Source: an uncultured delta proteobacterium (GTDB taxonomy: Bacteria > Desulfobacterota > RBG-13-43-22). Taken from it: 64,000 nt of DNA. Of this stretch, positions 4,775-58,834 are shown in pieces; the first letter of the stretch is position 1; each line of letters opens with the position of its first letter. The DNA is taken from contig CAVQFQ010000021.1 of NCBI GenBank assembly GCA_963711835.1, positions 256,001 through 320,000 of the forward strand, written 5' to 3'. Below the pieces are notes generated by a model. The model was given only the letters and a program-made list of their open reading frames with translations. It was not told the DNA's origin and searched no databases. Both the position numbers and the translations under genes were made by a program.

Positions 4775-4790
4775 TTTTTATTTAAAATCG

Positions 4791-5123
4791 GGGATAGTCC
4801 CAAAGTTACCTGATTCTCAAACTGAAGGGGTAGCCTCTTAAAATATTAAATCACCCCAAAGGGCTTCGGGGGTCTTGATTTCAAGGATTGTCCGCCAAAA
4901 CGTCGGCAGCCTGAACCCGGGCAGGAAGTTTATAAGTGGGGTTTAGAAACAGGCCAACACCAAAGCGATTTATCGTCTTGGGTGAATGCCCGGCTCCCAA
5001 CCAACTTAGAAATTCGGGCCGGGTTGGGGCTATGGATTACCATTCGGACAACCTTGGAATCAAGACCCCTGAAGCCCTCGACTAATGGAGTGCTTAAAAA
5101 TCACATAACTTTGGGACAAACTC
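4791..5123. mobile_element. Non-coding MITE-like element with nested inverted repeats, family A copy 1
   Basis: Outer TIR GTCCCAAAGTTA.../...TAACTTTGGGAC; inner ~35-bp IR 4860-4894/5045-5078; close copy at 8293-8679. Confidence 0.8.
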
Positions 5124-5154
5124 TAAAACCGAGGATTGGGAGAGAGGCTGAGAC

Positions 5155-5379
5155 GTGTTGAACCCCTGGGATGGATTAGGGAAACTCTTGCTGGTATTGG
5201 GTTTGGTCCTGGTTGTTATAGGAGGGAGCATCTTATTGCTCCCGAAAATCCCCTGGCTCGGCAAGTTACCGGGGGATATTTTCATCAAGGGAGAAAAGGT
5301 CAGTTTTTACTTTCCCATCACGACCGGCATCATTATCAGTCTTCTCCTGACCCTCCTATTCGCCCTTTTCAGAAAGTAA
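5155..5379 (+). CDS. DUF2905-like small membrane protein
   Basis: LGKLPGDI...FYFPITT.IIIS motif. Confidence 0.85.
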   Translation: MLNPWDGLGKLLLVLGLVLVVIGGSILLLPKIPWLGKLPGDIFIKGEKVSFYFPITTGIIISLLLTLLFALFRK

Positions 5380-5859
5380 TCCCTGATAACGGCCGACGAT
5401 CCGCTGGATAAGCTTCGTGGTGGATATGGAGGGAACTAATTGGATGCGCCTGACCTGGCCGCCGTAAGACCGGACCAGGTCCGCCCCGATAATCTTTTCC
5501 TCCGGCCAGTCCGCCCCCTTAACCAGGATATGAGGTTTAATCGCCTCAATCAGTCGAAAAGGATCCGGCTCATTGAAAAGCACGACATAGGAAACGCATT
5601 CCAGGGCCGCCAGGACCTCGGCCCGGTCGTCTTCGGCCGTCAGGGGTCGGTGGGGCCCTTTAATCTCCCGGACCGAGCGGTCGCTGTTTAAGCCCAGGAT
5701 AAGGCTGTCTCCCAGACTTCGGGCCTCTTTTAGGTAGCGGACATGGCCCACATGAAGAAGATCAAAACAACCGTTGGTAAAAACTATCCTTTGGCCTCGT
5801 TTCCTCAGGTCGGCGGCTATTTCGGCAATCTGATTCTGGGGAATGATCTTGTTTTTCAT
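5356..5859 (-). CDS. rfaE2: D-glycero-beta-D-manno-heptose 1-phosphate adenylyltransferase
   Basis: FTNGCFDLLHVGH, GLNSDRSV, VKGADW; start set at MKNK (ATGA overlap with comF). Confidence 0.92.
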   Translation of the reverse strand: MKNKIIPQNQIAEIAADLRKRGQRIVFTNGCFDLLHVGHVRYLKEARSLGDSLILGLNSDRSVREIKGPHRPLTAEDDRAEVLAALECVSYVVLFNEPDPFRLIEAIKPHILVKGADWPEEKIIGADLVRSYGGQVRRIQLVPSISTTKLIQRIVGRYQGLLSEKGE

Positions 5860-6581
5860 TCCAGTCCTACCCGGGCCAGGGTCAACACGGAAACCTCCCG
5901 GGCCCCGGCTTTTTTTAGAATCTTGGCGCATTCATTGACCGTGGCCCCGGTGGTAAAGACATCATCCACCAAGAGGATCCTCCGTTTGCGGACTGCGGCC
6001 TGATCCCGGACCGCAAAAGCCCCCCGGACATTTTTTTCCCGCTCTTTGGGATTAAGGTGGACCTGGGGCAGGGTATCCCGAATACGTTTTAAGGCCCTCG
6101 GCAAGATTTCTTTTCCAAGGCTACAGCCGAGAGTCTTCCCCATTAAAAGGGCCTGGTTAAATCCCCTTTCCCGCAACCGGGAGAGATGCAGGGGAACCGG
6201 CACAATGGCATCAAAGGAAAGGTCCCCCAAGTCCATCTCCTTCCAAAACCGGCCCAGCGGTTCGCTGAGGGTGAACTCCTTGTGATATTTAAAGCGATGC
6301 AAGGCCCGGACGATAATGCCCCGGTAAAGGACCACCCCCCTGGCCCAATCGAAATAGTACTTTCCCTTTAAACAATCCGAACAAAGATGCGATAAATTCC
6401 CGGCCGGGTAAGGCAGCCCGCAACCCGGGCAAAAAGGCGGGGTTATCCAATGAATATCCTTTTCGCATCCTTGGCAAAATCCTCCTGGAAAGGCCTCTGA
6501 GGGCCTTCTGAGGGTCTGACACAAGGAGCAGTGGTCTGGGAAAAAGAGGGAAATTAACCCGAACCACCAAGCGGAGGTCAT
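5856..6581 (-). CDS. comF: ComF family protein
   Basis: Zn-ribbon CxxC pairs, [25 protein letters not shown]. Confidence 0.9.
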
Positions 6582-7765
6582 GGGATTCTTTCAATCAGGG
6601 CCTGGCCGAATTGGGAGCAGGAGACCTCTACGGCATCCCTTACCTGGCGGGCCAGATCGTAGGTGAAAATACGATCCGAAAAAGTTCGTTCCAGGCCCTG
6701 ATAAAGAACAGCAGCAGCCTCCGGCCAGCCCAGGTGTTCGAAGAGCATGGCCCCGGAAAGGATCAAGGAGCCCGGATTTACCCTGTCCAGACCTGCATAT
6801 TGCGGAGCCGAACCGTGCGTCGCTTCAAATATGGCGCACTCATCGCCCAGATTGGCGCCGGGCGCCATGCCTAACCCCCCCACCTGGGCAGCCAGGGCGT
6901 CCGATAAATAATCCCCGTTCAAATTGGTGGTGGCGATAACCGAATACTCAGCCGGACGCAACAGAACCTGCTGAAACATCATATCGGCAATACGGTCTTT
7001 TATGACGACCTTTGAGCCCCTTTCCCCTTCCGGCCGGCTTTCGGCCTCGGTTGAAGTCCGGTCGGGGAACTCTGTCCGGGCCAATTCATAGCCCCATTCC
7101 CGGAAGGCCCCTTCGGTAAATTTCATGATGTTGCCCTTATGGACCAGCGTCAGACTGGGCTTTTGAAAACGCAGGGCATATTCAATGGCCCGGCGGACCA
7201 GGCGCTGGGTGCCGAACCGGCTGATCGGTTTTATGCCGATCCCGGAGTCTCGAGGCAATTTCTTTCCGGTCTTTTTTTCGATCCAGTCCAGAAGCTCCCC
7301 GGCTTCAGGGCTTTCAGCCGGCCATTCGATACCGGCATAGACGTCCTCGGTATTTTCCCGAAAGATGACCATATTCACCGCTTCCGGATCTCGCATCGGG
7401 CTGGGCACGCCGCTGAAATAGCGAACCGGCCGGAGACAGACATAAAGATCCAGGATCTGTCTCAATTGCACGTTCAGGCTCCGGATACCTTTGCCCACCG
7501 GGGTCGTTAAGGGTCCCTTAAGGGCCACCCCATGTCGGCGAATAGTCTTTAGGCTTTCTTCCGGCAGCCATTCCCCGGTCCGGGCAAAGGCCTTTTCCCC
7601 GGCCGGAACCTCCAGCCATTCGATAGTCCGGCGGCCGGAGTAGGCCTTTTTTAAGGCCGCCTCCAAAACCGGCCGGGAGGCCCTCCATATATCCGGACCG
7701 GTGCCATCCCCTTCAATAAAGGGAACCACGATCTGATCGGTTGTTTCCGTTCTCCAGAAAGGCAT
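6578..7765 (-). CDS. icd: NADP-dependent isocitrate dehydrogenase
   Basis: [46 protein letters not shown]. Confidence 0.96.
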
Positions 7766-7800
7766 TTTTTACGGTCCTCGACTTAACTCTTAAACAAAAG

Positions 7801-8116
7801 ATCGTTCAGTAAGTTGTGGCACTGGCGTATTATTGCCTTACTGGGGACCGGGGGCCTTGATTTCAAGGCTTGTCCAAAGGGTGATCCTTCCCGCCAATCC
7901 GGCCCAGATTTCTAAGGTTGGTTTAGAGCCGGGCATTCACCCAACCGAACAAACAGCTTTGGTGTAGGCCTACTTAAGGCATTATCGTCAACCTTCCAGT
8001 CCCGCTAAAAGCGGGATTTCAAGGTGAGGAGTTTATGGTGGACAACCTTGAAATCAAGACCCCCGGTCCCCTTCCATCGGGTATCAAAAATATAATGCCA
8101 CAAGCTTCTGAACGAT
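7801..8116. mobile_element. Non-coding element with nested inverted repeats, family B copy 1
   Basis: Outer TIR ATCGTTCAG..AAGTTGTGGCA/TGCCACAAGCTTCTGAACGAT; inner IR 7843-7876/8039-8071; second copy at 58509-58822. Confidence 0.8.
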
Positions 8117-8292
8117 GCCAACAAAAGGCATCCCAATTTCATAACAAAAGGGCTTCAAGAATACAATCAAATAACCTTTTTTTTTGCCTTAGGGCACTTT
8201 TTGATTAGACTATCAATCCTATTTATGTAAAAATTACAACAAAATAATCGAGATAGCCGTCATGGGTTCGGTTCGGTGTGATTTTAAGATTA

Positions 8293-8679
8293 GGGATAGT
8301 CCCAAAGTTACGTGATTCTCAAACCGAAGGGGGTGTCTCTTAAAATATTAAATCACCCCAAAGGGCTTCAGGGGTCTTGATTTCAAGGATTGTCCGCCAA
8401 AACGCCGCTAGCCTGACCCCGGGCAGGAAGTTTATAATGGGGTTTAGAAACAGGCCAACACCAAAGCTATTTATCGTCGGCGGGATGAATGCCCGGCTCC
8501 CAACCAACTTAGAAATTCGGGCCGGGTTCTTCGCATCCAAAACAATGCTCAGTCCCACTCCTGCGGAGTGGATCCCAGTTTGGGGCTACGGATTGCCTTT
8601 CGGACAACCTTGAAATCAAGACCCCCGAAGCCCTCTATGAATGGAGTGCTTAAAAATTACGTAACTTTGGGACAAACTC
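8293..8679. mobile_element. Family A copy 2 (with ~55 bp extra insert)
   Basis: Same TIRs and inner IR (8362-8396/8601-8634) as 4791-5123; flanked by TTA and TAA. Confidence 0.8.
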
Positions 8680-8767
8680 TAAATTTCGGATATTTGAAAC
8701 CCATTTTACTGTGAATAATGCGGGATAACGAGGGAAATTCCAACAAGCCGCTCTATCGGGGGAAGCC

Positions 8768-10795
8768 ATGGTCATAGAAAAAAAGGGGAAGAGCGCATCC
8801 GGTGGCCGGGGATTCTGGGGAAGGATTTTGAACATTCATCTCGATAGCCGGAGGCTGGAATATGAAGAAATTGGGGCTGATGTTTATGGGAAATTTATCG
8901 GGGGTATCGGGCTGGGGGCCAAGGTCCTCTGGGAACGGATGAAGCCCGGTGTTGATCCCCTGGGGCCGGAAAATATGCTCGGATTTACCACCGGCCTTTT
9001 GACCGACACGGGGTCCCTCTTTACCGGACGGTTTATGGTGGTGGGGAAATCACCGGCCACCAATGGCTGGGGGGATGCCAACTGTGGAGGTTATTTTTCT
9101 CCCTTCCTGAAGCGCTGCGGGATCGACGCCGTTTTTTTTCAGGGACAGAGCGAAAGTCCTGTATACCTGCTGGTCAACGATGAAGGTGCCGAAATCAAAG
9201 ACGGCTCCGACCTCTGGGGACTGGATACCATGGAAACCGAGAAGCGTCTCAAAGACCGTCATGGGGCCAGGGCCCAGGTGGCCTGCATCGGACCGGCCGG
9301 GGAAGGCCTGAGTTTTATGGCCGGTGTAGTCAACGACCAGGGCCGGATTGCCGCCCGGGGCGGACTGGGCGCGGTCATGGGATCTAAAAAAGTGAAGGCC
9401 ATTGTGGCGGTCGGGACCCAGCGGATAGGGGTCATAGATTCCAAAAGGGTCCAGGAATTAAGCCGGCAGTTTTTAAAACACCTGGAGAAGGGGCAAAGAT
9501 TAAAACCCCTTTTGGGGGACAGGCTTTTGGGAATCCTGGGTCTGATCACCCGGAAGAGCCGCCTTTATCCCAGGCAGCCGGCGGATCTCTGGCGCCTGCT
9601 TTTAAGCAAGTACGGCACCGCCGGAATCACGGCCCTCAGCGCCGAAAGCGGGGACAGCCCGGTCAGGAACTGGGGCGGGGTAGGCTATAGGGATTTTCCT
9701 TTAAGCCGATCCAAAAAAATCGGTCCGGAAGCGGTCTTGCAGTATGAGGTCAAAAAGTATGGCTGCTATTCCTGCCCCCTGCACTGCGGTGGTATCGTAA
9801 AAGTAACGGACGGCCCCTATCCGATTGAAGAAATGCACAAACCGGAATACGAAAGCCTTTGCGCCCTGGGAACCCTGCTGCTGAATGAGGATCTGCCTTC
9901 CATCTTTAAGATCAACGACCTGGTCAACCGGGCCGGTATGGACACCATCTCCTGCGGTGGGGTGCTGGCCTTTGCCGTGGAGTGTTTTGAAAACGGTCTC
10001 TTGACCAAATCCGATGCGGATGGCTTGGAACTGCGTTGGGGAAATGCCCCGGCCCTGGTAGCCCTGACGGAAAAAATGATCAAACGGGAAGGGCTGGGAG
10101 ATCTCCTGGCCGATGGTGTTAAAAAGGCCGCGGAACGGATCGGAAAGGGCTCGGAACAGTTTGCGGTTCACTGCGGCGGTATGGAGGCGCCCATGCATGA
10201 TCCCAAATTTGATCCCGGGTATGGGATTTCCTATTCCTGTGAGCCCACCCCCGGACGGCACACCATTTCTTCCTATCAATTCTTGGATCTCCAATTTCTG
10301 GAGAAAAAATTCAAAAGGGCCGGGAAGGTTCCCGCCTTGACCACCTATCACCAAAAATATAATTATGAAAACAGAGGGGAGGCCGTGGCCATTGACAGCT
10401 TTTACAAAATGCTCATCGATTGCGCCGGGGCTTGCCTCTTTGGAACCCAAATCAGGGGGGACATCCCGCTTTGCGAATGGATGAACGCCGTTACCGGTTG
10501 GGATCTATCGAATGATGACTATCTGCAGATCGGGGAACGGGTTGAGCAGTTGCGGCATGCCTTCAATATTCGGGAAGGCCTCAACCCGCAAAAGGACTTC
10601 CGGCCCCATCCCCGCCTCACCGGGGACCCGCCCCTGCCCAAAGGCCCGGCCAAGGGTGTTACGCTGGATATGGAAAAGCTGACTCGATCCTTTTACCAGG
10701 CCATGCACTGGGATCTTGAAACCGCAAGGCCGGCCAGGGATCATTTGGAAAAACTCGATCTGGATGAGGTTGTCAGCGTATTATATTCCGATTAA
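8768..10795 (+). CDS. aor: Aldehyde:ferredoxin oxidoreductase family (W/Mo-pterin)
   Basis: KSPAT.GWGDAN.GG, RGGLGAVMGSK, CxxCPxxC, EYES, GMDTIS, LADG. Confidence 0.92.
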   Translation: MVIEKKGKSASGGRGFWGRILNIHLDSRRLEYEEIGADVYGKFIGGIGLGAKVLWERMKPGVDPLGPENMLGFTTGLLTDTGSLFTGRFMVVGKSPATNGWGDANCGGYFSPFLKRCGIDAVFFQGQSESPVYLLVNDEGAEIKDGSDLWGLDTMETEKRLKDRHGARAQVACIGPAGEGLSFMAGVVNDQGRIAARGGLGAVMGSKKVKAIVAVGTQRIGVIDSKRVQELSRQFLKHLEKGQRLKPLLGDRLLGILGLITRKSRLYPRQPADLWRLLLSKYGTAGITALSAESGDSPVRNWGGVGYRDFPLSRSKKIGPEAVLQYEVKKYGCYSCPLHCGGIVKVTDGPYPIEEMHKPEYESLCALGTLLLNEDLPSIFKINDLVNRAGMDTISCGGVLAFAVECFENGLLTKSDADGLELRWGNAPALVALTEKMIKREGLGDLLADGVKKAAERIGKGSEQFAVHCGGMEAPMHDPKFDPGYGISYSCEPTPGRHTISSYQFLDLQFLEKKFKRAGKVPALTTYHQKYNYENRGEAVAIDSFYKMLIDCAGACLFGTQIRGDIPLCEWMNAVTGWDLSNDDYLQIGERVEQLRHAFNIREGLNPQKDFRPHPRLTGDPPLPKGPAKGVTLDMEKLTRSFYQAMHWDLETARPARDHLEKLDLDEVVSVLYSD

Positions 10796-31783: not shown

Positions 31784-32593
31784 ATGAAAAAGCTCATTAG
31801 TTTGTTAAGCATCCTTTTTATTTTAGCCATATTAGGGCCGCCTAACCAGGCAGAGGCTGCTCGTGGGAGTGGAGGGCCTGGTATCTCTGGTGGACACGGA
31901 GGGTCTGGGCGTGATGGGTCCGGTGGAGATGGCGTATATAGAGGGAGTGGCAGGCCAGGCGATCAAAGTAGAGACGGTGCACGTGGCGTATATAGAGGGA
32001 GTGGCAGGCCAGGCGATCAAGGTAGAGACGGTGCACGTGGCGTATATAGAGGGAGTGGCAGGCCAGGCGATCAAAGTAGAGACGGTGCACGTGGCGTATA
32101 TAGAGGGAGTGGCAGGCCAGGTGATCAAAGTAGATACGGTGCACGTGGCGGGTATAGAGGACATTATGGGTATCCTGGGCATGGCGGATATCGTTGGTAT
32201 GGTGGGTATGGAGGTTTTTTCCCCGGATTGTTTATCGGCGGTGTCTTAGGCTGGAGCTTGTGGCCGGCTTACTATTACCCTCCGGTATATGATTATCCTC
32301 CCCCGCCTCCGCCGGATTACTATTACCCACCACCGCCCGAAGGGAGTCAGGCGCCACCGTCGGAAAGCCAAGGGTCGGGTGGTCAGATGTTCATCTACCC
32401 CCGCCAGGGCCAAAGTGAAGAGCAACAGTCAAAGGATTTTAACGAATGCAACAACTGGGCTGTTGGTCAGATAGGCTTCGATCCGGCAAAGCCGCCCGAT
32501 GGAGCACCCGATGCTCAGACCATGCAAAAAAGCGAGGACTATTTACGGGCGATAAGTGCCTGCCTCGATGCCCGGGGGTATACCCTAAAATAG
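31784..32593 (+). CDS. Secreted Gly/Arg/Tyr/Pro-rich protein with C-terminal IYPxxGQS...EC domain
   Basis: Signal peptide ending AEA; 18-aa tandem repeats; GGAG RBS. Confidence 0.8.
   Translation: MKKLISLLSILFILAILGPPNQAEAARGSGGPGISGGHGGSGRDGSGGDGVYRGSGRPGDQSRDGARGVYRGSGRPGDQGRDGARGVYRGSGRPGDQSRDGARGVYRGSGRPGDQSRYGARGGYRGHYGYPGHGGYRWYGGYGGFFPGLFIGGVLGWSLWPAYYYPPVYDYPPPPPPDYYYPPPPEGSQAPPSESQGSGGQMFIYPRQGQSEEQQSKDFNECNNWAVGQIGFDPAKPPDGAPDAQTMQKSEDYLRAISACLDARGYTLK
31931..32146 (+). repeat. Coding tandem repeat, 4 x 54 bp (GVYRGSGRPGDQSRDGAR)
   Basis: Units start at 31931, 31985, 32039, 32093. Confidence 0.95.
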
Positions 32594-32758: not shown

Positions 32759-33544
32759 ATGAAGAAGTTAATTTTTAAAATATTGTTTTTGACATTGGTA
32801 ATTGTCGTTCCTATTCCAACGATGGCAAGGGTAGATGTAAACATCAGTATTGGTCTGCCGCCGCCCATCGTATTTGCCGCACCACCAGAGGTGATAGTGA
32901 TACCTGGGACGTATGTCTACGTTGTACCTGACATTGATGTAGACCTCTTTTTCTGGAATGGTTGGTGGTGGCGTCTATGGGAAGGTCGTTGGTATCGCTC
33001 ACATTATTATAACCGGGGCTGGGGTTATTATAACGATGTTCCAAGTTTTTATTTTGATGTAGACCCAGGTTGGAGAGGATACTACAGAGACCATAATTGG
33101 TACGGGCACCGGTGGAACTATGAACGGATTCCTTACCAACGACTTCAACAGAACTGGAAGAGCTGGCATAATGATCGACATTGGGAAAGGCAAGGAACTT
33201 GGGGCGTCCAGAGCTATCAACCTCGACCACAACAACAGAGACAGGAACTAAGACAACAAAGGCAACAGCAATATCAACAGAGGCCTGAGGTTCAGCAACA
33301 TCAGCAACAGAGACAACAGCAACAAAGACAACCTCAGGTTCAGCAGCCAAGACAACAACCTCAGGAGAGAGTTCAGCAGCCGCAAAGACAAGAGCAAAGA
33401 CCTCAGGTTCAGCAGCCAAGACAAGAACCTCAGGAGAGAGTTCAGCAGCCGCAAAGACAAGAGCAAAGACCTCAGGTTCAGCAACCACAACATTCTCAGC
33501 CTCAAGGAAAACCTGAAAGAGGGGAGGTAGAACATAAAAAGTAG
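32759..33544 (+). CDS. Secreted protein with Trp/Tyr-rich domain and Gln-rich tail
   Basis: AAAGGAGG RBS, signal peptide, VNISIGLPPP..FAAPP motif. Confidence 0.8.
   Translation: MKKLIFKILFLTLVIVVPIPTMARVDVNISIGLPPPIVFAAPPEVIVIPGTYVYVVPDIDVDLFFWNGWWWRLWEGRWYRSHYYNRGWGYYNDVPSFYFDVDPGWRGYYRDHNWYGHRWNYERIPYQRLQQNWKSWHNDRHWERQGTWGVQSYQPRPQQQRQELRQQRQQQYQQRPEVQQHQQQRQQQQRQPQVQQPRQQPQERVQQPQRQEQRPQVQQPRQEPQERVQQPQRQEQRPQVQQPQHSQPQGKPERGEVEHKK
33332..33484 (+). repeat. Coding tandem repeat, ~2.2 x 69 bp (Q/P/R-rich)
   Basis: CCTCAGGTTCAGCA at 33332, 33401, 33470. Confidence 0.9.
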
Positions 33545-41016: not shown

Positions 41017-41190
41017 AATAAGACTCCTTTTGAATAGTGCGTTAAGACGCAAGGCGAAAAAACCAAGATGGATTGGGTTTACTGTTTGCTGGGTCTGTTT
41101 TCATCCTCGCTAATCTCCCGAGTTGAGAATAGGCTACCATTTTAGGCATCTCCCTTACCCTTTACGCCTTACGCCTTGCGACTGTCGTTG

Positions 41191-47993: not shown

Positions 47994-48164
47994 TTTAACA
48001 AAACCCGTAAGGCGCAAGTCGTAAGGCGCGAGTCGTTAAAAGCAGCCGGCTTTGCCCTTTCCGATTTGACCCCTCCAAAAACGATTGTTTCAGTTATCCG
48101 TTTCCTCAACGACCTTTACCCCTTACCCCTTAGCGGTTACGCCTTGCGCCTTACGACTCACGCC

Positions 48165-50818
48165 CTAACACGCCTCCAGCAGGGCCACATACTGGTCGTC
48201 CTGGAAGTGGCCGACCTGGATGGCCCCCTGGGGGCAGGCACTGGCGCAATTCCCGCAGCCCCGGCAGGCGGCCGGATCGATCTGGGCAAAATGGCGCTCG
48301 TTGATGCGCGGGACATTGAAAGGACAGACCCGCAGACAGGTCAGGCAGGCCACGCACCAATCCTCGTTCACCTCGGCCACTGGCCCGCCCACATAGATCA
48401 GCTTCTGGGACAGGATGGTGGCTGCCCGGGCCGCCGCCCCCTTGGCCTGGGACAGGCTTTCTTCAATGGATTTCGGGCCATGTCCCAGGCCGCAGAGGAA
48501 CATCCCGGCTCGTAGAAACGGTCGAAGCCCTTACCCTGGGCGCGCATATCGATAAAGAAGATCGTGGTGTCAATATCGGCCTCGTGTTCCTTGGTGATCA
48601 TGGCCTGCTTGGTAGCGTACATACAGCAGACATAGGAACAGTAGTCGGCCGATTGCGCCGTCGCGCGAGCCCACGCACTGGATCCAGGCCATTCCGGCTT
48701 GGTTTCTTACCATCGGAAGAGCCGATGGATATGGCCTTCGAAGGGTCCGGCAGCGGACAGTATGCGCTCATATTCGATACTGGTCACCACATTGGGGTAG
48801 CGCCCGTAGCCGTATTCCTCTTTCAACCGGGCGTCAAAGATCTCAAAGCCGGGGCAGGCCACCACCGCCCCCACTTCCAAGGTAAGGTCCTGGCCGGTCA
48901 TGGTGTGATCGATGGCTTTGGCCAGACAGACCTTGACGCACTGATAACATTCCGAACAGATCCCGCACTCAGCAGGCATCGTTCGGCCTCGGTCAGGGTG
49001 GTCTCTTCCTGGAACGCTGGGGCCACTTCCTTGAAGTTTCCTTCCCGGGCGGCCGGGGGAATCTTGGTGATGGACAGGCGGGCCTTCTTCAGGACCCCCT
49101 CCGTGGAGGGCTTTTCATAGGACCAGTCTTCTTCCCGCCCGGCTTTCAGGTCCACCCCCTTGAGGTACCGGCGGATGCTTTCGGCGGCCTTCTTGCCGCT
49201 TTCCACGGCTTCGACCACCGACTTGGGGCCGTAAAAAACATCGGGCCGCAAAATACTGCGGAATAGGGGTTTGAAGAGAGACCGGGTTGCCCGCAGCCCC
49301 CCTCGGGGGTTATGGGCGACAACCTGCTGGTGGCAAAGGAGAGATCGGCCGCCTGCCCGATAGCCACGATAACCGTATCCCCGGTGAGGGCGGTCAAATC
49401 CTTTTCATCATACTGTTGCTGCAGGGCCCCTTGGGCATCGAGACGGCCGTGCACCGTTTGAATTCGATCCCAACTTTACCGCCTTCCTGGAGAAACCGCT
49501 TCGGACCGAGACTGTTCACGATTTCGATCCCTTCTTCGAGGGCCTCTTCGATCGACAATCCCAGGCGGCATTTCTTCCCGCTTTCGAGGAGATCAGGGTG
49601 ACCTGCCCGGCGCCGTAGCCGTTGACGCTGAAGGCCACATCGACGGCCACATTGCCGCCGCCGATGACCAGGACTTTTTTCACCCAGGGGGATCGGGTTC
49701 TTCAAGGCCTAGTTCTTGGAGAAATTCATCCCTCGATAATCCCTGGGCAGGTCCTCCCCTCCATGTTCAGGCCCCACTCTATGTGCAGGCCGGTGCCGCG
49801 ACGAAACATGCCGCCGAAAGCCCTCGGCCTTCAGGATATCGAAGGAAATATCCTGACCGAAGGTCATCCTGGTCTTGATTCCCATACCGAGGGCCTCGAT
49901 GGTCCGAATTTCGGAACGGAGGATGTCCCGGGCAGGTGGTACTGGCAATGCCCGACGGCCATCCATGCCCCGGCCACAGGAAGTTTCTTAGACCGTTACT
50001 GGATACCCTGGGCGAGGAAAGGTGACCCAGTCCGGCGGACCGGAGTCATTATGGCGATTTTTTGGCCTTCCGTTCCTTGATCTCCCGGAACTGTAGCTTT
50101 TCCGCCGGGCCAGGTCCTCATCGGCCAGAGCTGCAGGTACTGGATCTGCATAGTGGCTGGTCGAATTCTCCGGCGGATGCCCAGGGGGACGGCGACAGAC
50201 CCGGCCGCAGATTCCGGGAAAAGGATGGGCCTCTTCGCAAGAGGGCCAGGGCCTCCCGGGTATTTCTTCTGGTTGATCAGGGCGAGGGACCCTGGACGCT
50301 GACGTGGGCCGGGCAGGTGGCCTTGCAGGGGGAGGTCCCCCGGGCGATCGATGGCAAAGGTGGAAGGCACGGCCTGGGGAAAGTGATGGTAAATGGCCTT
50401 GCGCCGGTTCATCCCCTGGTTAAAATCGGCCGGCACCTCAACGGGGCAGACCTTGATGCACTCCCCGCAACCCGTACAGGCCTCTTCCCGAATAAAGCGG
50501 GGTTCTTTATGGAACTTGGGAAATCATAAAGCGGCCGGTCTCCATAGATCCCCGTTACCCGGCTTTGGGTCAGAAGCTCTATATTGGGTTGCCGGATACC
50601 TCGATCAGTTTGGGTGAAATCAGGCAATTCTAGCAGTCGTTGGTGGGAAAAGTCTTGTCCAACTGGGCCATGCACCGCGCGCTGCCCCTCACGTTGCGGG
50701 TGCCCGCCAGATAGACCTTAAAACCGGCATTGGCCAGGTCCAGGGCCGACTGCATCCCGGAAATGCCGGACCCGACCACCAAAACGGCACCGATCTTATT
50801 TGAATTGGGTTGGCTCAT
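48165..50818 (-). pseudogene. Large HdrA/HdrL-like flavoprotein, heavily fragmented (decay or assembly error)
   Basis: Fragments in different frames: [66 protein letters not shown]. Confidence 0.75.
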
Positions 50819-58364: not shown

Positions 58365-58508
58365 TCCGGCCCCCAGGAAAAAATGGATTGCGGTTTTAGG
58401 CTGATCCCTTAGAGGGGTCCGCTGGTCCTGATTTCATGGAACGTTGTACCTAAACAGGCCCTCTCTCCCAAAAAAGGAGAGAGGGCCGGGATCAGGCAAC
58501 TGAGGGGT

Positions 58509-58822
58509 ATCGTTCAAAAGTTGTGGCATTTTATTTCTGATACCCGTTGGAAGAGGACCGGGGGTCTTGATTTCAAGGTTGTCCAAAGGGTGATCCTTCC
58601 CGCCAATTCGGCCCGGATTTCTAAGGATGGTATAGAGCCGGGCCTTCACCCAACCGGACAACCAGCTTTGGTGAAGGCCTGCTTAAGGTATTATCGTCAC
58701 CCTTCCAGTCCCGCTAAAAGCGGGATTTCAAGGTGAGGAGTTTATGGTGGACAACCTTGAAATCAAGATCCCCGGTCCTCCAGTCAGGCAATAATGCGCC
58801 AATGCCAAAAGTTTTAAACGAT
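58509..58822. mobile_element. Family B copy 2 (shell reversed relative to core compared with copy 1)
   Basis: Core 58586-58747 colinear with 7877-8038; outer arms are reverse complements of the opposite arms of copy 1. Confidence 0.8.
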
Positions 58823-58834
58823 ATTAAATAAGAT

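Follow-up and report, generated by a model that had tools for sequence, protein, structure and literature searches.

How two kinds of mobile-element shell come to enclose the same interior is the question raised by four short insertions in a 64,000-nucleotide stretch of DNA, here called the window, from an uncultured delta proteobacterium (contig CAVQFQ010000021.1, positions 256,001 to 320,000). A sequence-only reading had placed these elements in two families, A and B, around a common inner inverted repeat and core, and the four elements, like the inner repeat and the core that they share, proved to lie where it had put them. A1, A2, B1 and B2 are MITEs that have ISH6-type ends and no genes, and each carries one common palindromic module of ∼220 bp.

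A1 (4791-5123, plus strand) has ISH6-type (A) TIRs and is bordered by an 8-bp target duplication with one mismatch (4783-4790 and 5124-5131). Its a-type module (4860-5078, plus strand) consists of a 5′ arm (4860-4894), a motif core (4895-5044) and a 3′ arm (5045-5078). B1 (7801-8119, no strand assigned) has ISH6-type (B) TIRs, the left one three bases short, and lies in a perfect 8-bp duplication (7793-7800 and 8120-8127). The b-type module of B1 (7843-8071, minus strand) contains an inserted small REP-like palindrome (8001-8015, no strand assigned), which has a counterpart in B2 (58710-58724) and is missing from some other b-type copies. A2, an A-type MITE with a degraded target duplication (8293-8679, plus strand), carries an a-type module (8362-8634, plus strand) interrupted at about 8529-8582 by a 54-bp insert, within which lies another small hairpin (8557-8571). 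B2, a B-type MITE whose target duplication is gone (58506-58825, no strand assigned), holds a b-type module at 58553-58780 on the minus strand. B1 and A2 were correctly placed between two genes, icd on the minus strand and, on the plus strand, an aldehyde ferredoxin oxidoreductase-like gene that scores under the NCBIfam cut-off, but the gap between them measures 173 bp, not 177 bp. A promoter and terminator scan of 7700-8800 gave chance-level results.

The outer TIRs of the two families had been taken for unrelated. In fact, 13 of their first 17 bases agree (4791-4807 against 58506-58522) and both are of ISH6 type; the sub-terminal spacers do not align. The ends of the A shells, including those of A1 and with their asymmetry, match an autonomous element (L190), and those of the B shells, including B1, match another (L106). 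The transposases of these two elements, of 449 and 451 aa, scored 433.7 and 483.5 bits against NF041731 (cut-off 240) and share 24% identity; the module is absent from both elements. Full-length copies of ∼300-390 bp (40 A and 28 B) contain no transposase gene, and an 8-bp target duplication with at most one mismatch borders 26 of 39 A copies and 22 of 28 B copies. At the B1 site, one RNA-library contig from a related sediment strain skips 7800-8134; this empty site shows recent movement and does not identify the enzyme. The target duplications, the empty site and the end matches to autonomous ISH6 elements establish the shells as transposed units. No ISH6 transposase was detected in this genome, whose assembly is 89% complete, nor any above the cut-off among 21 family genomes (best 233.6 bits), and no long A or B TIR pair surrounds an ISH6 gene in the genome. 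A search of the genome for ISLre2-type transposases (PF06782) was also negative and carries little weight, as the control gave no match either. Among the loci examined, none was an autonomous partner of shells C, D, E, F or H. A and B elements resemble ISH6-family insertion sequences (NCBIfam NF041731) and insertion sequence-derived MITEs in having the TIRs of two autonomous ISH6 elements and 8-bp duplications and, at ∼300-390 bp, in being non-coding and intergenic. They differ in that the interior is not an ISH6 remnant, the module being missing from the autonomous elements and occurring also in shells without ISH6 ends or without target duplications.

The module was found at 146 loci in the genome, well beyond chance, and, with relatives included, in at least seven shell types within one bacterial family. 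It is present in 20 of the 21 genomes of the order and in none of 146 genomes outside it. Plasmid and phage collections searched in distant mode with one module as query gave no match, and viral contigs searched with the core pattern gave none. Full copies are more numerous than module-less ones among A (40 against 4, with 3 partial), B (28 against 6, with 1 partial) and D shells (16 against 6), and copies freely gain insertions and deletions. With at least seven shell types, exchanges between shells and autonomous ISH6 partners that lack the module, the modular view of these elements holds beyond what had been proposed.

Within the module, inverted arms of 33-35 bp flank a symmetric array of short motifs spaced ∼30 bp apart. 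A core of ∼75 bp had been described as common to both families; the sharing stands but the size does not, as the whole ∼220-bp skeleton is common and ∼100 bp can be aligned directly between A and B. Of 157 modules, 132 conform to the motif skeleton; its median span is 162-164 bp in each of the four genera, and 124 of the 132 preserve a G-versus-C asymmetry within one motif pair. Spacer lengths are likewise conserved over the four genera, with no sequence in common among the spacers. Private substitutions occur in motifs at roughly half the spacer rate (33/3771 against 211/12561; p = 1e-4), a deficit that could reflect hairpin-templated repair instead of selection because the motifs pair with each other. 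The motifs at fixed spacing likely mark a role at the DNA level rather than an RNA gene. A decayed protein gene was rejected, the alignment showing frequent 1-2-base indels and, as read off it, no common open frame. Resemblances to a DnaA box in the TTGTCCA motif, to Tn3 38-bp ends and to the E. coli REP tail found no support and were dropped.

The core had been described as reverse-complemented in B. This is not a family trait: A shells and B shells alike contain the module either way round, and B2 is an inversion isomer of B1, with its shell halves exchanged relative to the module. Both shell ends could be classified in 90 of the 117 near-full copies, and in these the orientations were divided 28:8 in A, 22:3 in B, 9:7 in C and 11:2 in D. 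Eight of 25 B shells contain an a-type module, and on the tree these modules lie dispersed among A copies. An assembly artefact was rejected as the source of flips and swaps because flipped and swapped copies have intact target duplications and recur in independent contigs; flipped A copies, for instance, are present in the metagenome contigs L192 and L197. A few left/right shell hybrids (L031, L059 and one joint in an RNA-library contig) could be assembly chimeras. The arms, in turn, mirror each other's mutations. Rare alleles were mirrored in both arms 33 times in 98 copies against about 2.9 expected, not all of them independent since related copies share mirrored alleles, and 93 rare arm alleles were unmirrored. 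In each of four families the mirroring exceeded anything produced by 2000 shuffles, and two copies were over-palindromised. Private mutations shared between arms in this way are what template switching would give, a process reported to homogenise arms and invert spacers; the inversions in that report span a few bases, compared with 150 here (PMC8604942).

We favour, at a probability of roughly 0.6, the explanation that gene-less ISH6-type MITEs carry a DNA passenger that is not mobile by itself, is spread by transposases that recognise its shells, is flipped by template switching and contains motifs under selection. ISH6 transposase would have acted on the shells in trans, and the passenger, itself probably immobile, would be spread by whichever transposase recognises its shell. 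Polymerase template switching between the 33-35-bp arms would copy mutations from arm to arm, and the same switching would produce the observed inversions of the core and keep the module symmetric, while slippage at short direct repeats that lie at the hairpin foot could delete the module. Recombination or gene conversion through the common arm and core may pass variants between shell families. The motifs, with their ∼30-bp spacing over four genera, would be putative protein-binding DNA sites arranged symmetrically about the centre. Copies that keep them would be favoured, most plausibly because the motifs help to pair the ends of a very short element, whichever transposase acts.

Of the earlier proposal of a mobile inner module captured by non-autonomous elements, the modular part holds, and mobility of the module's own is conjectural, no enzyme and no clearly naked copy having been found. 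A specific form of such mobility, movement as single-stranded DNA by an HUH tyrosine transposase of the TIRYT/RAYT type with insertion into small G-run/C-run hairpins within MITEs, as REPINs are moved by RAYTs, appears rather unlikely. In its favour, the genome has 12 Y1 matches, mostly genes for 285-335 aa flanked by inverted repeats starting with GGGG, and 20 of 21 family genomes contain close homologues, several with a GGTCT plus T-tract repeat resembling the module arm. TIRs of this kind are reported to be able to form repeat families in dimers (PMC3733652), and the same shells accept REP-like and Ssn-motif-like passengers elsewhere. TIRtrons, TIRYT repeats and REPINs are like the module in being inverted pairs starting with GGGG (PMC3733652, PMC6006769), with cognate-type Y1 genes plentiful in the same genomes. 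However, the arm was beside none of the 40 Y1 loci examined among the more than 100 matches listed, only two weak partial matches being seen; its sequence, GGGGTCTT (alignment A1), departs from the TIRYT terminal consensus GGGGWSAS (PMC3733652). In comparison with these systems, as far as the available text of the two sources describes them, the arm lacks GGGGWSAS and the GTAG foot, it borders no Y1 gene examined, and the module is confined to the inside of other elements. Tyrosine recombinase, IS110 and GIY-YIG genes were also listed, and the flanks inspected were those of Y1 and small GIY-YIG genes; a module lay within 2.5 kb at only 1 of 15. None of the 117 near-full copies is clearly naked, and a shell end was recognised in 116 of them by classification and inspection. 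A, B and D shells without the module are deletion products formed at a variety of short direct repeats, with several different microhomology junctions, and not clean pre-insertion sites. In C shells, where module loss is common, 10 of 33 matches have a symmetric mini-hairpin alone at the module position, in at least two sub-lineages; these mini-hairpins could be pre-insertion targets, although 2-base microhomologies account for them as well.

Selection through a transcript, with the module as a structured non-coding RNA (a long rod that a 35-bp stem closes, or a substrate of RNase III) spread by MITEs, is very unlikely. The whole module folds strongly, well beyond chance (z = -10.1 and -9.0), 25 of 32 stem pairs covary, the inner motifs could form short helices, transcripts of Correia MITEs are cleaved by RNase III (PMC10969869) and RNA libraries contain related sequence. 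The suggested structured RNA family nevertheless found no support: covariation was confined to the arms, neither strand nor orientation was biased, and Rfam gave no match. None of 12 pairs in inner helices 2 and 3 showed a compensatory change (3 of 8 did in helix 4), and Rfam gave no significant family on the module in the window and six related loci. The core without its arms has only a weak fold, of equal strength on the two strands (mean z -1.8 and -1.7), and mismatches in the arms yield G-U on one strand as well as on the other (40 against 50). By crude gene calls, 36 of 70 copies between co-directional genes share one orientation, and the core flips freely. RNA-library runs gave high summed depth over the elements, which is no evidence of expression because the elements are multi-copy and the runs are assembled contigs, with neither strand nor ends; two runs with small shares were uninformative on habitat. 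Resemblances to 6S RNA, SRP RNA and an HDV-like ribozyme were unsupported and dropped. The least probable reading takes the module as a neutral relic, for instance of an extinct transposon whose two ends have fused, and ascribes its apparent conservation solely to self-repair of hairpins and to gene conversion across the many copies. The mirroring of the arms is the kind of signal that repair leaves, and the over-palindromised copies and the free accumulation of indels agree with it. Against this reading, four genera have retained the spacer lengths and a non-complementary position with spacers that share no sequence, and self-repair would erase the G-versus-C asymmetry that has been kept; no matching transposon end was found in plasmid and phage collections, autonomous elements or Y1 loci.

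The usual account of a MITE is that it arose from a single insertion sequence by internal deletion. In the present elements, the interior has a history of its own, being older than any single shell pairing and absent from the autonomous elements, and it keeps its motif spacing under apparent selection. Correia/NEMIS, ERIC and Chunjie of Geobacter resemble the module MITEs in being multi-copy and non-coding, with TIRs, strong folds, size variants and truncated copies, and inversion has been reported for Correia (PMC10969869, PMC3184786). In the available text of these sources, each forms a single family with a single pair of ends, and no core common to the shells of different transposons is described; Chunjie, at 178-235 bp with 9-bp duplications, is set apart by this description, not by sequence. 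Similar in organisation are the SINE superfamilies CORE, V and MESC, in which a conserved central domain is combined with ends borrowed from different autonomous partners (PMC4758252). SINEs are eukaryotic retroelements that move via RNA, whereas the module is bacterial, palindromic DNA, and no homology is claimed. We found no description of a prokaryotic MITE superfamily with a shared core in the literature searched, a set that lacks most subscription journals. A possible, still tentative interpretation is a prokaryotic counterpart of the SINE CORE domain, an ancient and selected dyad-symmetric module passed among at least seven unrelated shells in one bacterial family because it may boost or direct transposition in cis, by any transposase, through a host or HUH protein.

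Should the module prove to enhance transposition independently of the transposase, or to be a mobile unit targeted to hairpins, the efficient transposition of very short elements would be explained and DNA-delivery tools would gain a portable part; if the motifs are inert, it would be layered selfish DNA of a familiar kind. For RNA-motif screens it is a warning, as the perfect covariation of a long stem here accompanies flipping and arm-to-arm copying, not RNA function. C- and D-type shells hold other palindromic cargos in other families.

The four repeat elements of the window (A1, 4791-5123; A2, 8293-8679; B1, 7801-8119; B2, 58506-58825) and their inner inverted repeat were found as described in the sequence-only reading. 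B1 and A2 are separated by 173 bp and occupy a divergent gap bounded by genes for isocitrate dehydrogenase (match above the cut-off) and for an aldehyde ferredoxin oxidoreductase-like protein (match below the cut-off). The outer TIRs of the A and B shells, previously thought unrelated, are identical at 13 of the first 17 bases on direct reading, and the unit in common is a palindromic module of ~220 bp rather than a core of ~75 bp. Nor is the module fixed as the reverse complement in B shells, since it has opposite orientations in B1 and B2 relative to the shell halves. In two contigs from RNA libraries the left shell is A-type and the right shell B-type, linked via the arm (window 8377 to 8072); this could be a hybrid element or an assembly chimera.

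The module comprises two arms of 33-35 bp enclosing a core with four symmetric motif pairs: TTGTCC, CCGG(G/C)C, GCAGG and a central short hairpin. This motif skeleton matches 132 of 157 distinct modules, with median spans of 162-164 bp in all four genera and spacers of 22-26 bp; 124 of the 132 preserve an asymmetry within one motif pair, with G at one side and C at the opposite side. Spacers of divergent genera have little sequence in common. Small REP-like palindromes are frequent inside the module. One B copy (L061:309-2468; G000:C10 of this genome, about 53.7-55.9 kb) is interrupted in such a hairpin of its B-type module by an unrelated 2.2-kb insertion sequence with a 7-bp target duplication. 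Its two overlapping ORFs, likely joined by a frameshift at an A-run, encode a 190-aa helix-turn-helix-like protein and a 423-aa DDE_Tnp_1 protein; no NCBIfam family scored above its cut-off.

A profile search of the 3.9-Mb assembly returned 146 module loci (~3 being duplicates from overlapping contigs), 117 of them near full length. The hosts in this genome are A, B, C and D shells, plus two or three shells judged E-type by inspection; relatives supply F and H shells and additional E shells. Because a shell end was recognised in 113 of the 117 by pattern and in three more by eye, with one uncertain, there is no clear case of a naked module among these near-full copies. Within the order, a sequence model matched 20 of 21 genomes, covering all four genera; 146 genomes belonging to other families of the phylum, for which stricter filters were applied and 15 candidates scored per genome, gave no match. 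MAGs with matches are labelled Deltaproteobacteria, Thermodesulfobacteriota or Pseudomonadota; the plasmid, phage and viral collections searched gave zero matches.

A and B shells belong to a known class, the IS-derived MITEs of the ISH6 family. An 8-bp target duplication with at most one mismatch flanks 26 of 39 A copies and 22 of 28 B copies. A ends bound a 1.45-kb element with a 449-aa transposase on a metagenome contig (L190), and B ends bound a 1.6-kb element with a 451-aa transposase in a genome region (L106); the two proteins are 24% identical and score 433.7 and 483.5 bits, respectively, with the ISH6 model (cut-off 240). The module is present in neither of these autonomous elements. 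This assembly yielded no ISH6 gene, and the best match in 21 family genomes was slightly below the cut-off. D shells have TIRs, with the 8-bp duplication in 0 of 14; C shells have dissimilar ends, TAG at each boundary and no visible TIR. D- and C-type shells from other families enclose palindromic cargos other than the module, and relatives hold short C shells without trace of it; the shells thus serve as vehicles of general use, with the module as one passenger among several. A single sediment RNA-library contig, joining 7799 to 8135 with nine different letters intervening, is the empty B1 site of a related strain.

MITEs of other families at L079 (genome G215, B-type ends) and L115 (G301, A-type ends) hold different nested inverted-repeat cargos, the former including a repeat similar to the arm and a CAACTTAG motif, which recall the module without a profile match. 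True nested insertions occur in this genome at G000:C25:45074-45330 (an A element within a D element within a C shell) and G000:C16:1570 (an A element within a D terminal repeat). A second D-type subfamily of ~300 bp has another interior (G000:C17:44047, 47766, 393249; C4:87115, 480184; C22:10047).

Of the near-full copies, 90 could be classified at both shell ends, and the module occurs in both orientations (A 28:8, B 22:3, C 9:7, D 11:2). An a-type module occupies 8 of 25 B shells; on the module tree (FastTree, clades without test) these are dispersed among modules from A copies, and in relatives C and D shells are intermixed there too. In a set of 98 copies (two anchorless ones skipped and three duplicates removed), 33 rare alleles were shared by both arms, where shuffling of partners predicts about 2.9, and 93 occurred in one arm only. 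Template switching is reported both to homogenise arms and to invert the spacer, in cases with spacers of a few bases (PMC8604942). A, B and D shells without the module are deletions, as they retain arm parts and have their breakpoints at various short direct repeats. Symmetric mini-hairpins, 10 of 33 C-type hits, could be deletions or targets.

A structured RNA family had been proposed, and the whole module does fold far more strongly than shuffles. This strength comes from the arms, since the armless module gave mean z values of only -1.8 and -1.7 on the two strands. In a 32-sequence alignment, compensatory changes affected 25 of 32 pairs in the arms and 3 of 8 in the central helix, but none of the 12 pairs in the two inner helices formed by the motifs. 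G-U pairs from arm mismatches (40 vs 50) favoured neither strand, orientation between co-directional genes was 36 of 70 by crude ORF calls, and Rfam gave no match; that the module is an RNA appears quite improbable, and its inner conservation is that of sequence and spacing, as for putative DNA-binding sites. A neutral relic is very improbable. Private substitutions, counted within this genome's four module types after exclusion of seven odd or duplicate copies, were about half as frequent in motifs (33/3771 site-copies) as in spacers (211/12561; p = 1e-4), a deficit to which hairpin-templated repair could contribute.

Alternatively, the module might be an independent element moved by an HUH enzyme, which we consider unlikely. 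Y1 matches number 12 in this genome, and most lie between inverted repeats that start with GGGG and resemble those of TIRYT elements (PMC3733652, PMC6006769); some family Y1 homologues have a GGTCT plus T-tract repeat that recalls the module arm. The arm itself flanked a Y1 gene at 0 of 40 loci examined and departs from the GGGGWSAS consensus, and we treat a link to Y1 enzymes as a lead only.

We favour, at a probability of roughly 60%, a non-autonomous DNA passenger that would be spread by the transposases of its shells and altered by template switching, would pass from shell to shell by recombination, and would be kept for a candidate role of its spaced motifs in cis, plausibly via end synapsis. 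Its shared, apparently selected core recalls the common central domain of SINE superfamilies (PMC4758252). The literature searched, of incomplete coverage and including portions of two MITE reviews (PMC10969869, PMC3184786), yielded no description of a shared-core MITE superfamily in prokaryotes.

Elsewhere in this genome, loci L232-L241 include roughly nine Y1 transposase genes of TIRYT-like type, accompanied by inverted repeats that begin with GGGG, together with small GIY-YIG genes flanked by NTS/dRS3-like hairpins. Open frames of the window contain tandem repeats of 54 bp and 69 bp (31867-32190 and 33331-33492). The window also holds heptamer-like CCTTACG arrays at 41152-41183 and 48008-48167, one of which is an inverted pair.
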